Assembly (NCBI RefSeq): GCF_044647545.1
Contig: NZ_CP172818.1
DNA from: Escherichia coli
GTDB lineage: Bacteria; Pseudomonadota; Gammaproteobacteria; Enterobacterales; Enterobacteriaceae
DNA length: 64,000 nt
Reading direction: 5' to 3' (one strand)
In this document: one piece after another, positions 4,207-37,804 of the stretch
Layout of the letters: every line of letters begins with the position of its first letter
Position numbering within the stretch: position 1 is the first letter of the stretch
Position numbers and translations under genes: made by a program
The notes under the pieces: generated by a model
The model's input: the letters and a program-made list of their open reading frames with translations, nothing else
The model's database searches: none
What the model was told of the DNA's origin: nothing

Positions 4207-5322
4207 ATGAAAAGAAAAGTTCTGGCAATGCTGGTCCCGGCGTTATTAGTTGCTGGCGCAGCAAATGCGGCTGAAATTTATAATAAAGATGGCAATAAAG
4301 TTGATTTCTACGGCAAGATGGTTGGCGAACGCATCTGGTCAAATACTGATGATAATAACAGCGAAAACGAAGATACCTCCTATGCTCGTTTCGGTGTTAA
4401 AGGTGAAACCCAAATCACCAGCGAACTGACTGGTTTTGGTCAGTTTGAATACAACCTCGACGCCAGCAAGCCCGAAGGTGAAAACCAGGAAAAAACCCGT
4501 TTAACCTTCGCCGGTTTGAAATATAACGAGTTAGGATCATTTGACTATGGCCGTAACTACGGTGTTGCTTATGATGCCGCAGCTTATACCGATATGTTAG
4601 TTGAATGGGGTGGCGATTCCTGGGCTTCCGCTGACAACTTCATGAATGGTCGTACCAACGGTGTTGCAACCTACCGTAACTATGATTTCTTTGGCCTGGT
4701 TGATGGTCTTGATTTTGCGATTCAGTACCAAGGCAAAAACAGCAACCGTAGCACTAAGAAACAAAATGGTGACGGCTATGCGTTGTCTGTAGACTATAAC
4801 ATCAATGGTTTTGGTATCGTTGGTGCATATAGCAAATCTGATCGCACCAACGATCAAGTTGCCGATGGAAACGGTTCAAATGCTGAACTGTGGTCATTGG
4901 CTGCAAAGTATGACGCGAACAATGTCTACGCAGCTGTAATGTACGGCGAAACTCGTAATATGACTCCGGGTTCTATTGATACAGGTGTTGCCGATCGAGA
5001 AGGCAATACAATAATGCGTGATCAACTTATCAATGAAACCCAGAACTTTGAAGCGGTTGTTCAGTATCAATTCGACTTTGGTCTGCGTCCGTCCTTAGGT
5101 TATGTGTACTCTAAAGGTAAAGATATCAAAGGGGTACCTGGACATAGATATGTTGACGCTGACCGTGTGAACTACATTGAAGTTGGTACCTGGTACTACT
5201 TTAATAAGAACATGAACGTTTATACTGCATACAAATTCAACATGCTGGATAAAGATGACGCCGCCATTACTGGCGCAGCAGCTGATGACCAGTTTGCAGT
5301 TGGTATCGTCTACCAGTTCTAA
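4207..5322 (+). CDS. yedS: OmpC-family general porin (intact here)
   Basis: ORF with signal peptide [31 protein letters not shown] start of mature porin, C-terminal ...VGIVYQF; track ORF starts 30 nt upstream. Confidence 0.8.
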
Positions 5323-32989: not shown

Positions 32990-33733
32990 TTATAGCAGTG
33001 CCAGCAGGAAGACCAGTTCACCAAGCTCTATGGCTGCTCCCAGCGTATCGCCGGTTTGCCCGCCCAGCGTACGTTTGAGAAGCTGACCGAGGATGAAAAT
33101 CGCCACCATCGTCACCACCATAGCAGCCACACCATGCATACCCGGCAATAATACGGCAGCAAAAATAGCGGCTAAGCCGAGTGTGACGCAGGTTTGTCGC
33201 CCATCAATTTTGCCAATGAACACATTGCCAAGCCCTTCTTCCCGGGCATAACGATGACGATACATCAATAATGCGGCAGTCCCGCGGCTGATCGCACATG
33301 CTGCCGCCAGCGATGCAAGGATCGGTTCGCCACGCAGAGCCAACTCGCTTAACACCAAAATCTTTGCCAGTACAACAAAAATCAATGCCAGACCGCCGTG
33401 GGTACCTAAACGGCTATCACGCATGATTTCCAACATGCGATCGCGGCTACGTGCAGAAAATACGCCATCACAGGTATCAGCGAGGCCGTCCAGATGGAAT
33501 CCCCCGGTCATCAGCACCAGCACAAGTACGCTAAACAGTGCCGCCAGTGGTGCGCCACACCATGCCTGCAGCACCATGAAGACCAGCCCGCTAATCGCGC
33601 CAAGCAATAATCCAATCAAAGGAAAAGTAATAATACCGCGAGAATAATGCTCGAAATCCAGTCCCTGGGACCAGCGACGCGGTACAGGCAGACGCGTAAT
33701 AAATGAGAGCATCGCCCAAAATAATTTACTCAT
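32990..33733 (-). CDS. cobS: Cobalamin 5'-phosphate synthase
   Basis: Polytopic ORF, internal start [16 protein letters not shown]... Confidence 0.85.
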
Positions 33734-34275
33734 TTGATTTTTACTCCAATACCCGAAACCACCAGCCATACTTCATTTGCCGCAGCGGCCAACTGCTGAT
33801 TTACCCGCCCGGCAATATCACGAAAATGTCGTGCCAGACGACTCTCCGGCACAATCCCCATTCCCACTTCGTTAGTCACTAATACAACCTTTGCGGGGCA
33901 ACGTTGGCAGGCAGCAATCAACGACTGAATCTCAGCATTAATCGCCTGTTCCATCGCCTGATAATCCCATTCATCAGGGTCTTTATCGCCGCCATAATCA
34001 AACAACAGATTAGTCACCATTGTGGTAACGCATTCAAGCAACACAACCTCATTCGGGTTAATGTCTGCATGAATTAATTCATCAAGATGTTGCCAGCGCT
34101 CCACTGTGCGCCAGTGCTCCGGGCGGCCTTGCCGATGATGTTCTATCCGTGCAGCCATCTCATCATCAAGGATTTGCGAGGTAGCGATATACAGAACCTG
34201 TGAAGAGTCCCCAATAAGCGCCTCTGCGTGGCGACTCTTCCCGCTCCGTGCGCCCCCCGTCACCAAAATCATCAT
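33730..34275 (-). CDS. cobU: Adenosylcobinamide kinase / adenosylcobinamide-phosphate guanylyltransferase
   Basis: 181-aa ORF with P-loop GGARSGKS. Confidence 0.85.
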
Positions 34276-35691
34276 ACCGACTCCTGATTCAAATGTATGA
34301 TGGTATTCATTGAACAGAACAATGGATCCCCCACCGTTGCTGACCGCAAAACATTTACGCGATTAATACTGCGCGTAATATAATTAAAAATCCAGCATTC
34401 TCAATCCATTACGAAATAAGATGGCATTACGGAATAGCCAGACTTTCTCGTGTTAACGTCCGACAAAATGCGTCATTGACAGCGGTTTCTGTGGATTGAC
34501 ACATTTCATTCAGATAATGAATTAATGCTACTGCCGGAACAACCAGCAAACGGGCATTGTGTTCTGAAATCCAGGCTATTGATTCAACGTCAGCGACAGA
34601 TCTGCGCTGTAAAAGAACTTGTAAAACAACGTAATAGAATTATCCGGAATGGTGGCCTAGAACACCACAATTTCGCTCTCTCGGTAAGGCACTGTCACAG
34701 CATTCAACAGAATGTGACTTGCCAGATTTATTAGCGCCACCAGATGTTTAACCGGGTAACCACGACCCAGTCGGGGATATATTCCATCTTCTCGCTGACA
34801 TCATCAAGAATAAAAAGGTTTATCACACTCAGAGCAACGTTCTTCAGCAGGCGGGATAATTCTTCAACATTTAGAAGATGTGTTATTAAAGGCATACAAA
34901 CTGGACGTATTGTATTTTCTTTTGGTGGTTGACCTAAGGTAGCAGTTTATCCTGATGCGCTGAGATTTCTGTAATATCTACGTCAACATTCTCCTCGAAT
35001 AGAAAATGCAGCCCCGGCAAGTGATTCACATTTTTTAACAAAACGTTGTTAGCGTGCCATTTTCAGAAGCTCTCCAAGAAAGCGAATTCTTTTCTCAAAT
35101 TCTGCATTCTCAGACACAGCTTTCTACTCCATGGTAATGGCCCAAATACGAAGTTGCTCAGGATCATTAGTGGTGCTGAGAAGTTAAATAACCATGCGGA
35201 GTACCACTCGTCATCACGTATTTATATATCATGAAGCTATTGTTGTGTTTTGTACATCAGTAGATATATTCTGATATACTCCTTTTGCTAGACATAACCT
35301 TTCACCTGCTTGCAAAGCTTCTGTGTTCTGACATTGCCAAATTGTTGCAATTCTGTATCCAGCCTTCTTTCAGTCATAGCTTCGGGCCGCGATAAGACTC
35401 ACTGATCTGACCCTGATTCCTCTTGCAGACTTTATAGACCAATTAAAATGCAGTTTCTGCAGGTCAACGTCTGACCATCATTGTCATCACTCTGGCCATT
35501 AGAGTAACCTTCTGCATTCATCCTTTTGTAAAAAGTTTATATTAGTATCAGCAATTAACCGGACCTGATACTGATATGAGTCTTACCGCATATACGGTCA
35601 ATTTCAGCAATTAATTACATTATCCACGCCAAAGTATTTGTCATCACAATGATGGTACCTTCTTTCAGACACCATTTTTTCAACTCCGTTT

Positions 35692-35732
35692 TCCACGGAC
35701 CGCACTCTTATGTCAAGAGTGCGGTCCGTGGA
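35692..35732. repeat. Perfect 18-bp inverted repeat with 5-nt spacer
   Basis: TCCACGGACCGCACTCTT-atgtc-AAGAGTGCGGTCCGTGGA; no T-run after it. Confidence 0.9.
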
Positions 35733-35883
35733 TACAACCAGAGACCGACTGACACGAGTCAGAGGAAACGACGGATATGTTCAGTCGTAAAATATCTATC
35801 AAAAAACATGATTAAGGTCAAAAATGTTTGATATTTACAATTTATGAAGATGACAATAATTATAGATATATGAGAACATAAAT

Positions 35884-35904
35884 GAAAATAATTATCATTA
35901 CAGC
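35884..35904 (+). promoter_or_regulatory. Fur-box-like sequence upstream of TonB-dependent receptor gene
   Basis: GAAAATAATTATCATTACAGC resembles Fur consensus GATAATGATAATCATTATC. Confidence 0.35.
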
Positions 35905-36254
35905 AATCATTTGTACTTTGTATTAATGAGGGATGAAATGTTATATAATATACCTTGTCGAATTTATATCCTTTCCACTCTGTCATTATGCATTTCTGGG
36001 ATAGTTTCTACTGCAACCGCAACTTCTTCAGAAACAAAAATCAGCAACGAAGAGACGCTCGTCGTGACCACGAATCGTTCGGCAAGCAACCTTTGGGAAA
36101 GCCCGGCGACTATACAGGTTATTGACCAACAAACATTGCAGAACTCCACCAATGCCTCCATAGCCGATAATTTGCAGGACATCCCCGGAGTAGAGATAAC
36201 AGACAACTCCTTGGCAGGCCGTAAACAAATCCGCATTCGTGGCTGGATTTGCCC

Positions 36255-37160
36255 CTATATTTCCAGACATCTGTTATCACTTAACCCATTACAAGCCCGC
36301 TGCCGCAGATATTCCCGTGGCGAGCGATAACCCAGCGCACTATGCGGATGCCATTCGTTATAATGCTCGAACGCCTCTGCAAGGTTCTTTGCTGCCGTTA
36401 ACCCGTCTGGTTTGGGCATGATACTGATGTAGTCACGCTTTATCGTTTTCACGAAGCTCTCTGCTATTCCGTTACTCTCCGGACTCCGCACCGCCGTGTT
36501 CTTCGGTTCAAGTCCCAACATCCGGGCGAACTGGCGTGTTTCATTAGCCCGGTAGCATGAACCATTATCCGTCAGCCACTCCACTGGAGACGACGGAAGA
36601 TCGTTGCCGAAGCGGCGTTCCACCGCTCCCAGCATGACGTCCTGTACTGTTTCACTGTTGAAGCCGCCGGTAGTGACCGCCCAGTGCAGTGCCTCACGAT
36701 CACAGCAGTCCAGCGCGAACGTGACACGCAGTCTCTCTCCGTTATCACAGCAGAACTCGAACCCGTCAGAGCACCATCGCTGATTGCTTTCTTTCACGGC
36801 CACTCTGCCTGTATGTGCCCGTTTCGATGGCGGTACAGCAGGTTTTCGCTCAAGCAACAGCGCATTCTGGCGCATGATCCGGTAAACACGTTTGGCATTG
36901 ATCGCAGGCATACCATCAAGTTCTGCCTGTCTGCGAAGCAGCGCCCATACCCGACGATAACCATACGTTGGCAGCTCTCCGATAACATGGTGTATACGGA
37001 GAAGCACATCCGTATCATCAGTGTGACGACTGCGGCGGCCATCCATCCAGTCATCGGTTCGTCTGAGAATGACGTGCAACTGCGCACGCGACACCCGGAG
37101 ACAACGGCTGACTAAGCTTACTCCCCATCCCCGGGCAATAAGGGCGCGTGCGCTATCCAC
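36255..37160 (-). CDS. insD: IS2 transposase OrfB (DDE integrase domain)
   Basis: 301-aa [33 protein letters not shown]... matches InsD. Confidence 0.9.
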
Positions 37161-37482
37161 TTTTTTGCCCGTCCATATTCAACGGCTTCTTTGAGGAGTT
37201 CATTTTCCATCGTTTTCTTGCCGAGCAGGCGCTGGAGTTCTTTAATCTGCTTCATGGCAGCAGCAAGTTCAGAGGCAGGAACGACCTGTTCTCCGCGGCG
37301 ACAGCAGTAAGACTTCCCCCCTGGATTGCTTGCGCCAGAGAAATAACTGGCTGGCTGCTACACCGTGTTGCCGGGCAACAAGGGAGGCCGTCATTCCCGG
37401 TTCAAAGCTCTGCTGAACAATAGCGCTCTTTTCCTGTGTAGTACGCCGTCTGCGTTTCTCCGGTCCCTAAGACATCAATCAT
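37118..37482 (-). pseudogene. insC: IS2 OrfA (InsC), out of frame in this copy
   Basis: ATG...TAA span is 365 nt (not a multiple of 3); MIDVLG then frame lost; later frames still encode [12 protein letters not shown]...LFLWRKQ and ...[45 protein letters not shown]. Confidence 0.65.
37160..37167 (-). promoter_or_regulatory. IS2 programmed -1 frameshift slippery site (A6G)
   Basis: Minus strand CAAAAAAG at the insC/insD overlap. Confidence 0.6.
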
Positions 37483-37804
37483 CTGTTCTCCAATGACTAA
37501 GTCAAAAACTAGAATATTAAGACTATCACTTATTTAAGTGATATTGGTTGTCTGGAGATTCTGGGGGCTAGTCTAGTGGCGAAGCATCCTCCCGTGTTTT
37601 AATTCTCATTGATGGTCAGGAGGTAACTTATCAGCGCGCCGGAGATAATTATGGTGTGGGACTGTTGATAGATGAGTCTGCGCTGGAGCGTGTTGAGATA
37701 GTGAAAGGTCCATATTCCGTACTGTACGGTTCACAGGCAATTGGCGGTATTGTTAACTTCATCACCAAAAAGGGTGAATCTCCAGACTCCCTATATCACT
37801 TAAA

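Follow-up and report, generated by a model that had tools for sequence, protein, structure and literature searches.

The spacer between cobU and yoeA in the 64-kb window (the whole stretch of K-12-like Escherichia coli DNA that was analysed) is, judged by homology searches, a patchwork of broken pieces of three mobile elements together with two ordinary promoter regions. It is very probable that ancestral DNA is joined here to a horizontally acquired, decayed segment rich in insertion sequences (IS), corresponding to the left end of the cryptic prophage CP4-44. The ancestral side would comprise the promoter of cobU together with the last part of an open reading frame (ORF) of the cbi region. 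The acquired segment would have brought the Fur-regulated TonB-dependent receptor gene yoeA, and its first ~1.15 kb would represent a graveyard of insertion sequences. All features of the spacer are already annotated or published, and it is ordinary decayed accessory DNA.

The spacer measures 1,635 bp (34276-35910) and has no long ORF; according to the ORF listing the longest is at most 75 aa, with several of 30-75 aa, and every coding remnant is on the minus strand. Its GC content is 39.7%, compared to 49.1% for the whole window, in agreement with the preliminary description of an AT-rich interval bordered by the start of cobU (34275, minus strand). The AT-richness very probably reflects both a foreign origin and a GC-to-AT-biased decay. 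The right limit, 35910, is merely the base preceding an upstream TTG, the yoeA ATG being located at 35938. The name cobU is given in the annotations of MG1655 and other strains, and yoeA, which PGAP annotates in other strains as an intact 2,148-bp gene, is interrupted here by IS2, with an IS2 transposase ORF at 36255-37160. The interval had also been described as unannotated and devoid of any ORF resembling a known protein. Neither statement holds: MG1655 (NC_000913.3) annotates yeeH, yoeG, yoeH and the start of CP4-44 here, PGAP marks two pseudogenes here in other strains, and four separate stretches display clear protein homology. The features are as follows.

33730..34275, minus strand: cobU, left boundary gene (intact 181-aa ORF; 100% identity with MG1655)
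34276..34426, minus strand: cobU leader and promoter region (promoter scan; PMC3946193)
34427..34570, minus strand: 3' end (48 codons and the stop) of a 144-145-aa ORF specific to Escherichia (PGAP pseudogene; BLASTP)
34579..34767, minus strand: IS4-family transposase, internal fragment of ~63 codons with one internal stop (PGAP label; tblastn; NCBIfam)
34752..35195, minus strand: IS66-family transposase (TnpC), residues 1-151, decayed (tblastn; blastn)
35196..35310, minus strand: IS66 tnpB-tnpC intergenic stretch and last ~25 tnpB codons (DNA alignment; weak protein match)
35311..35563, minus strand: ISEc11-like 3' non-coding region, NCR (alignment to eight ISEc11-family NCRs)
35564..35725, minus strand: ISEc11-like transposase, last 54 codons with the original stop, equivalent to yoeH (tblastn)
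35692..35732, no strand assigned: perfect palindrome, two 18-nt arms around a 5-nt loop (repeat search; fold)
35733..35937, plus strand: yoeA promoter region with a Fur-box cluster at 35846-35902 (Fur consensus scan; PMC2189734)
35938..36243, plus strand: 5' fragment of yoeA, TonB-dependent receptor, right boundary gene (cut by IS2; MG1655 annotation)

The short ORFs had been regarded as decayed gene remnants, and they are indeed truncated and frameshifted fragments of IS4-, IS66-, and IS110/IS1111-family elements. Because of their decay and stop codons, a Pfam profile search with the six-frame translations of the spacer matched no family, and a weak IS4 match is the sole one found with NCBIfam. 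None of the three IS remnants is able to move, since each lacks a catalytic domain and both element ends and is riddled with stops or frameshifts. The debris has no known function; the functional parts are, according to published work, the two flanking promoters. The proposal that the interval is degraded accessory DNA was right, ~1.15 kb of it (34579-35732) consisting of such fragments. Two parts are not debris: the region with the promoter of cobU and the promoter of yoeA, controlled by Fur, are functional regulatory DNA (PMC3946193, PMC2189734, PMC4676285).

The remnant closest to yoeA derives from an ISEc11-like element (IS110 family, IS1111 group; Prosseda 2006; Siddiquee et al. 2024, PMC11187229). 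By tblastn it corresponds to residues 284-337 of a plasmid IS110-family transposase (48% identity, E 4e-9), and a 50-aa query searched against 7.3 Gb recovered plasmid IS110/ISEc11-family transposases at 42-49% identity (E down to 3e-5). The MG1655 yoeH pseudogene maps to 35564-35722. The reference transposase bears the Pfam domains DEDD_Tnp_IS110 and Transposase_20 (210-285); what is left here, residues 284-337 of ~340, falls almost wholly after Transposase_20, and the DEDD transposase domain is missing. As in ISEc11, the transposase C-terminus ends with a stop codon at the same place and is followed by a co-linear NCR of ~250 nt, and as in ISEc11 relatives on plasmids, the remnant sits within an IS66-family element. 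Unlike ISEc11, it retains neither the catalytic DEDD domain nor the left end, and its right subterminal repeat is gone.

The NCR aligns end to end with those of eight ISEc11-family elements at 62-73% identity, and the homologous region of ISEc11 encodes the seekRNA. The role of this region has been described, and its location downstream of the transposase gene is the hallmark of the IS1111 group (PMC11187229). It is decayed, yet keeps the conserved blocks of the family, with variable guide segments where they are expected. It deviates at 35 of the 157 columns that are invariant in the eight relatives, mostly by G-to-A or C-to-T changes, including positions within conserved core motifs, and the stem enclosing the guide segments is bulged. 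The relatives have ATGAACGCATCCC / GGGATGCGTTCAT as subterminal inverted repeats. The terminal GGGATGCGTTCAT repeat is missing from the end of the NCR, where IS66 tnpB sequence follows straight after TTGCAAGC. In most of the intact relatives compared (L005, L010/L015, L011, L012, and L016; L013 partly), the first guide segment equals the reverse complement of the sequence on the right flank. The flank in the window (AGGTGAAAGG...) does not match the NCR's own guide segment, which marks the junction as a deletion rather than a place of insertion.

At its other side the transposase gene is cut off at a palindrome, whose existence was confirmed: the arms, 35692-35709 and 35715-35732, are 18 nt long and 100% complementary, and none of 100 shuffles of the window contained two arm matches. 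As RNA it folds with -41.1 kcal/mol (z = -8.2). Arm 35692-35709 is transposase coding sequence and arm 35715-35732 is an inverted copy of it; in intact relatives the inner-arm coding sequence occurs without a palindrome. The other strains examined do have the palindrome. It may have formed through fold-back (snap-back) repair, or through template switching, where a break removed the rest of the ISEc11-like transposase gene. A role as intrinsic terminator was discarded, since no T-run follows on either strand, as was a REP-type repeat, the palindrome being a single site in the 64-kb window. In strain THO-008 an IS3-family element is inserted in the palindrome after 35725, and yoeA has been lost. 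None of the insertions seen in THO-008, YL03 and O157 AC-3 accounts for the origin of the palindrome.

The debris is transcribed on both strands, as a yoeH sense RNA and an antisense RNA that is degraded by RNase III and terminated by Rho (PMC6847712). A divergent minus-strand promoter-like site (35888..35859), lying within the yoeA promoter region, was assigned to yoeH; the yoeH promoter TTTTCA-18-TATAAT is listed in PMC3946193 and was also found in the promoter scan. The near-full-length seekRNA-type region and the documented transcription leave a small possibility of residual RNA activity. One could thus propose that the retained NCR, perhaps with the palindrome, still yields a working RNA from the yoeH promoter, either an orphan seekRNA acting in trans for an incoming ISEc11-family transposase or a sense/antisense modulator of the yoeA/Fur promoter. 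Such a reading, which draws on the end-to-end alignment with active family members, the distinct guide segments, the upstream minus-strand promoter, the sense and antisense transcripts, and the ability of the ISEc11 NCR to work in trans (PMC11187229), is very unlikely. The altered invariant positions extend to the core motifs, the changes are mainly GC-to-AT transitions as predicted by neutral decay, no IS fragment here keeps a catalytic domain, the ISEc11-like right-end repeat is gone, and the region has no Rfam match. There is likewise only a slim chance that the decayed seekRNA region acts as an orphan guide or decoy RNA, or that yoeH sense and antisense RNAs and the hairpin constitute an RNase III-dependent device affecting the yoeA promoter. 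Neutral decay of mobile-element debris is the preferred explanation.

An IS66-family tnpB gene is cut off at the ISEc11-like 3' end. The IS66 remnant includes the first 151 residues of the transposase TnpC, disrupted by four frameshifts and at least four stops, and forms most of yoeG, whose upstream end coincides with the TnpC start at 35195. Searches with tblastn gave E 1.7e-23 (1.9e-37 summed over frames) in five frame-shifted segments of 41-71% identity, and blastn gave 71% DNA identity (E 8e-77) with an intact plasmid IS66-family element, the nearest intact one found. The alignment to this plasmid reference (L004) extends to 35310, equivalent to L004 position 3571, within tnpB, and TnpB residues 107-124 give a weak protein match. 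The reference TnpC has the IS66 Pfam domains, including LZ_Tnp_IS66 and zf-IS66; residues 1-151 cover the N-terminal leucine-zipper and zinc-finger part, and the fragment itself scores below the Pfam thresholds. Beyond residue 151 (34752) the homology gives way to the IS4 fragment, and the catalytic DDE_Tnp_IS66 domain is absent. Of the accessory genes upstream of tnpC, tnpA was not detected, nor was any part of tnpB other than its last ~25 codons. A repeat search found no candidate pair flanking the fragment; both element ends lie outside the retained stretch, so that neither terminal inverted repeats nor an 8-bp target duplication would be expected. As in ISEc8 and the plasmid element in NZ_MW390526.1, the TnpC N-terminal region is homologous, the tnpB tail is kept, and the tnpB-tnpC spacing, gene order, and orientation are retained. 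In contrast to such elements, of roughly 2.5 kb, the remnant is ~560 bp long, without the DDE domain or tnpA and probably without terminal repeats. The fragment is a remnant and not a functional member of the family. A promoter-like site TGTACA-17-CATGAT has been listed for yoeG (PMC3946193) and was placed by eye at 35256..35228.

Within the TnpC remnant lies the 54-codon minus-strand ORF of the preliminary description. Its quoted sequence is exact, and its position is 34731..34895 instead of about 34745..34910. Only its residues 28-48 align with TnpC, at 71% identity. It was considered whether the spacer, with its several short ORFs in a transcribed region (PMC6847712), conceals an intact small gene, for a small protein or an sRNA, such as this ORF. 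This is most improbable: the 54-codon ORF stays open over the IS66 remnant by chance, with no more than its residues 28-48 in the ancestral frame, and the remaining short ORFs also overlap decayed fragments. Furthermore, the MG1655 annotation has no small gene here, and Pfam, NCBIfam, and Rfam gave no match beyond the IS4 fragment. The Rfam search covered 33500-36500 at E values up to 1 and found no real family, with a chance match of a miRNA model on the palindrome only; known sRNAs and riboswitches in the spacer were excluded by this search.

The IS66 element is interrupted after transposase residue 151, abutting the IS4-family fragment, which comprises MG1655 yeeH and the 3' part of yoeG. 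PGAP labels the equivalent pseudogene as "IS4 family transposase", and tblastn found plasmid IS4 family transposase genes with 73-75% identity (E ~1e-21). The NCBIfam model transpos_IS4_1 was matched weakly at positions 132-197 of 332 (E 0.008; 15 bits vs. a cut-off of 115 bits). Homology to IS4-type DDE transposases is supported, as a fragment alone. Since the IS fragments meet at deletion junctions rather than clean insertion junctions, the order of events can no longer be read from them; an ISEc11-like element may have entered the IS66 element, with the deletions occurring afterwards. No intact relative with more than 80% identity was found for any of the three fragments, and for this reason the exact parent elements go unnamed. 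The clear homology to intact annotated genes that would refute the preliminary description exists in a limited sense: the fragments match intact transposases elsewhere, and the leftmost stretch matches an intact ORF at the same position in strain E2348/69. Intact orthologues of the IS fragments were seen at this locus in none of the strains examined.

This leftmost stretch represents the ancestral side. The ORF tail matches the intact E2348/69 ORF with 72% identity (BLASTP, E 5e-25), a PGAP pseudogene sits at the equivalent position in other strains, and the family of 144-145-aa ORFs is limited to Escherichia and Shigella. Sources name this ORF "cobalamin biosynthesis protein", with "cobalt-precorrin 5A hydrolase" as one of the names. 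Its assignment to a specific Cbi enzyme is tentative: it has no Pfam domain, the homologues found are confined to those two genera, and the source names are the sole support. The tail, probably left over from the lost cbi region, marks the edge of the ancestral locus. Next to cobU, a sigma-70-like promoter, TTGAGA-16-TATATT (34404 to 34377), scores 10/12 in the promoter scan, and the same hexamers are listed as the constitutive promoter of cobUST (PMC3946193). The first 128-296 bp of the spacer were found in 5,403 of 5,426 complete E. coli genomes. DNA homology to E2348/69 stops at ~34571, 296 bp upstream of cobU, and the cobalamin riboswitch annotated in that strain, ~790 bp upstream of cobU, lies beyond this point; no match to this riboswitch (Rfam RF00174) was found in 33500-36500 at E up to 1. 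That the interval is native cobUST regulatory DNA, for instance a diverged cobalamin riboswitch leader, as its place directly upstream of cobU and the E2348/69 annotation might suggest, is scarcely tenable, because homology ends short of the riboswitch, Rfam is negative, and all DNA past 34579 is homologous to mobile elements, which refutes it for 34579-35732.

On the opposite side, the Fur-box-like site reported earlier was located at 35884-35902. It scores 15/19, and nowhere else in the 64-kb window is the 19-bp Fur consensus matched as well; additional 14/19 matches occur at 35878 and 35846, a score reached by only 2.9% of local 204-bp shuffles. The best site occupies the positions 36-54 bp upstream of the yoeA start codon (ATG), further sites overlap it or lie nearby, and direct repeats ATGA[C/A]AATAATTAT are found at 35850 and 35882. 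The cluster lies close to the promoter of an iron-uptake gene, the downstream gene being a TonB-dependent receptor. Chen et al. (2007) reported yoeA as having the strongest predicted Fur cluster of the genome (27.4 bits, 12 sites, 95 bp) and confirmed it by gel shift (PMC2189734); yoeA is also among listed Fur targets (PMC4676285). The site in the window does not differ from this published operator cluster, and what had been called Fur-box-like is a Fur-binding cluster with experimental support.

The same locus with the same sequence is present in MG1655 as yeeH (b4639), yoeG (b4640), and yoeH (b4641) at the left end of CP4-44, with 100% and 99.94% identity on either side of the IS5H site. MG1655 has IS5H, its CTAG target duplication, and 9 adjacent bp (GACTATGCA), whereas the window is without all three, the 9 bp being missing from the IS4 fragment at 34656/34657. 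The IS5-less junction of the window was not found in the complete E. coli genomes searched. About half of the complete E. coli genomes (2,787 of 5,426) match the mosaic over at least 80% of the query, and full-length matches among those listed are 98-99.9% identical. Among strains free of the island, E2348/69 keeps the intact ORF, the cobalamin riboswitch, pocR, and pduF, and in ET350 a PduV fragment precedes tmaR (yeeX) and yeeA.

The analysis removes a false lead, as the spacer is annotated pseudogene debris flanked by two published regulatory regions, a result that by itself matters little. It also provides family names for the three K-12 pseudogenes, which the MG1655 RefSeq table lists without product names, so that the IS4, IS66, and ISEc11-like assignments are new detail: yeeH is an IS4-family fragment, yoeG the N-terminus of an IS66-family TnpC, and yoeH the C-terminus of an ISEc11-like transposase with a fossil seekRNA region downstream. 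The locus offers a clear case of an ISEc11-family element within an IS66-family element. Strains YL03, O157 AC-3 and THO-008 were discarded as carriers of a more intact ancestor of the mosaic; the first two harbor only fresh, unrelated ISEc8 insertions in the same spacer, and THO-008 the IS3-family insertion in the palindrome. The locus is a recurrent IS landing site across different lineages.

The AT-rich spacer between cobU (minus strand, start codon at 34275) and yoeA (plus strand, start at 35938) is real, with a GC content of 39.7% over 1,635 bp against 49.1% for the window, and its first reading as degraded accessory DNA was essentially right. The preliminary description also called the spacer unannotated and without any ORF resembling a known protein, and neither statement holds. 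MG1655 carries the pseudogenes yeeH, yoeG, and yoeH and the start of the cryptic prophage CP4-44 here, and PGAP lists pseudogenes named “cobalamin biosynthesis protein” and “IS4 family transposase” in other strains, so the locus is already annotated; the remnants match IS4-, IS66-, and ISEc11-like transposases and a 144-145-aa ORF. All of the pieces are decayed remains of familiar types, and the Fur site, promoters, and transcripts are already published. The additions made here are that each of the three K-12 pseudogenes is assigned to a family and that a fossil seekRNA region is recognized downstream of yoeH. All coding remnants lie on the minus strand, the longest ORF within the interval has 75 aa, and a hidden small gene in the spacer is unlikely. 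The features are as follows.

34276-34426, minus: cobU leader, with TTGAGA-16-TATATT at 34404..34377
34427-34570, minus: last 48 residues of the 144-145-aa ORF, intact at the same position in strain E2348/69
~34531: start of CP4-44 (MG1655 annotation)
34579-34656: yeeH pseudogene (MG1655 annotation)
34579-34767, minus: internal fragment of an IS4-family transposase, 63 codons (plasmid homologues, weak NCBIfam match)
34663-35195: yoeG pseudogene (MG1655 annotation)
34752-35195, minus: IS66-family transposase, residues 1-151 (frame-aware tblastn)
35311-35725, minus: 3' end of an ISEc11-like element (IS110 family, IS1111 group)
35311-35563, minus: 3' non-coding region of ISEc11 type (end-to-end alignment with eight ISEc11-family elements)
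35564-35722: yoeH pseudogene (MG1655 annotation)
35564-35725, minus: last 54 residues of the ISEc11-like transposase, stop codon in the ancestral place
35733-35937, plus: yoeA promoter
35888..35859, minus: divergent promoter TTTTCA-18-TATAAT, assigned to yoeH (PMC3946193)

The IS4 fragment is 73-75% identical to annotated IS4-family plasmid genes (E ~1e-21). The IS66 remnant was recovered by frame-aware tblastn as five segments in three frames (41-71% identity, at least four stops, summed E 1.9e-37), and the DNA at 34759-35310 is 71% identical to an intact plasmid IS66-family element (E 8e-77), in an alignment that takes in the tnpB-tnpC spacer and the final ~80 nt of tnpB. The 54-codon ORF noticed earlier is present, at 34731..34895, about 15 bp from where it had been placed; it is an accidental open stretch across the IS66 remnant, whose ancestral frame it follows only at residues 28-48 (FILDDVSEKMEYIPDWVVVTR).

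The transposase end at 35564-35725 shows 48% identity to an IS110-family transposase (E 4e-9), with IS110/ISEc11-family matches down to E 3e-5 in a 7.3-Gb database, and the non-coding region beside it is 62-73% identical to those of the eight ISEc11-family elements. In ISEc11, this region encodes the seekRNA by which the target is selected (PMC11187229). The first variable segment is, in most intact relatives compared, a reverse complement of the element’s right flank, in agreement with the targeting rule of that study, which it illustrates independently at the sequence level. The window’s copy carries distinct guide segments of its own, which do not match its flank. The terminal GGGATGCGTTCAT repeat is missing from this copy, and the non-coding region departs from its relatives at 35 of the 157 positions invariant in all eight, mostly by GC-to-AT transitions. 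The seekRNA region is a fossil. On F-type plasmids, ISEc11-family elements occur repeatedly inside IS66-family elements, in tnpC or beside tnpA/tnpB (L005 3331-4757, L010 ~780-2240, and L015). Beside the element of L005 (plasmid CP057768.1), an extra 36 bp at 4791-4826, with a 7-bp overlap of IS66 sequence, is absent from the uninterrupted IS66 element of plasmid locus L004.

The reported palindrome was borne out: its 18-nt arms (35692-35709 and 35715-35732) are perfectly complementary around a 5-nt loop, far beyond chance, and fold at -41.1 kcal/mol (z = -8.2). The first arm codes for part of the transposase (…ECGPW…) and is homologous to intact relatives, and the second is its exact inverted copy; complementarity ends at 18 nt, the flanks are unrelated to one another, and none of the intact transposase relatives has the palindrome. 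This structure thus marks the break that took away the rest of the ISEc11-like transposase gene, and may have arisen there by fold-back repair or template switching. The palindrome is present in the other strains examined. Homology stops inside it in ~660 genomes; in THO-008 the cause is an IS3-family insertion at this point, and the other genomes, which share the breakpoint, probably carry one too. A residual RNA function of the hairpin or of the seekRNA region is unlikely, given the decay.

Catalytic domain and ends are missing from all three IS fragments, so none is able to transpose, and no function can be shown for most of the interval (34579-35732). Transcription of the debris has been reported, including yoeH sense RNA and a yoeH antisense RNA of ~150-200 nt, which RNase III degrades and the Rho-dependent iRAP#6850 terminates (PMC6847712); this agrees with pervasive transcription of foreign, AT-rich DNA and is no sign of a function. 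The joins between fragments are deletion rather than insertion junctions, and the history can therefore be sketched in outline only: an ISEc11-type element would have lain in or beside an IS66-type element, a pairing known from plasmids, an IS4-type element would have adjoined the IS66 transposase gene, and later deletions would have trimmed all three. Of 5,426 complete genomes, 2,787 carry the mosaic over at least 80% of the interval, and full-length matches are 98-99.9% identical among the matches listed; the mosaic is therefore old and is inherited along with the yoeA segment. The spacer (equivalents of 34276-35937 in L002, L008, L009, L017, and hit H1) is also a recurrent IS landing site: IS5 has inserted in K-12 and IS1A in strain G5, and YL03 and O157:H7 AC-3 carry ISEc8-type IS66 elements at two different positions.

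On the cobU side, the leader hexamers TTGAGA and TATATT are the cobUST constitutive promoter in a genomic SELEX list (PMC3946193). The 48-residue tail is 72% identical to the intact E2348/69 ORF (E 5e-25); the family is limited to Escherichia and Shigella, lacks a Pfam domain, and is named “cobalamin biosynthesis protein” or, by one source, cobalt-precorrin 5A hydrolase. Two strains lacking the yoeA/CP4-44 segment show the locus without the island: in E2348/69 (L007 2634-4473), cobU is followed by the intact 145-aa ORF, a cobalamin riboswitch, pocR, and pduF, and in ET350 (L006 2682-3288) only by a PduV-family fragment, then tmaR (yeeX) and yeeA. Homology to E2348/69 stops at ~34571, which is where the acquired DNA really begins, ~40 bp past the annotated CP4-44 start. 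A cobalamin riboswitch in the cobU leader was excluded by Rfam search and comparison with the E2348/69 locus.

The window is from E. coli K-12, being 100% and 99.94% identical to MG1655 on the two sides of 34656/34657. MG1655 has IS5H between yeeH and yoeG; missing from the window are this element (1,195 bp), its CTAG target duplication, and 9 neighbouring bp (GACTATGCA), 1,208 bp in total, and wild strains without the IS have these 9 bp and a single CTAG. The exact junction occurs in none of the 5,426 complete E. coli genomes (closest is HS-01, with a 3-bp difference), and the source thus resembles a K-12 derivative in which IS5 was deleted imprecisely or by engineering. The IS2 in yoeA is retained.

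The Fur-box-like site also stands: at 35884-35902 it matches 15 of 19 positions, the best Fur-consensus match in the whole 64 kb, with 14/19 matches at 35878 and 35846. Chen et al. (2007) placed yoeA at the top of their strong Fur cluster predictions, equal with gpmA at 27.4 bits, with 12 sites over 95 bp and a gel shift shown (PMC2189734), and yoeA is in a list of Fur targets (PMC4676285). Inside this cluster, ATGA[C/A]AATAATTAT occurs as two direct copies 32 bp apart (35850-35863 and 35882-35895). The minus-strand yoeH promoter-like site overlaps both, so binding of Fur might influence transcription into the debris as well. As in MG1655, yoeA is broken by IS2 after ~306 bp (~36244-37574; insD-like ORF at 36255-37160, minus strand), and in other strains it is an intact TonB-dependent receptor gene of 2,148 bp.
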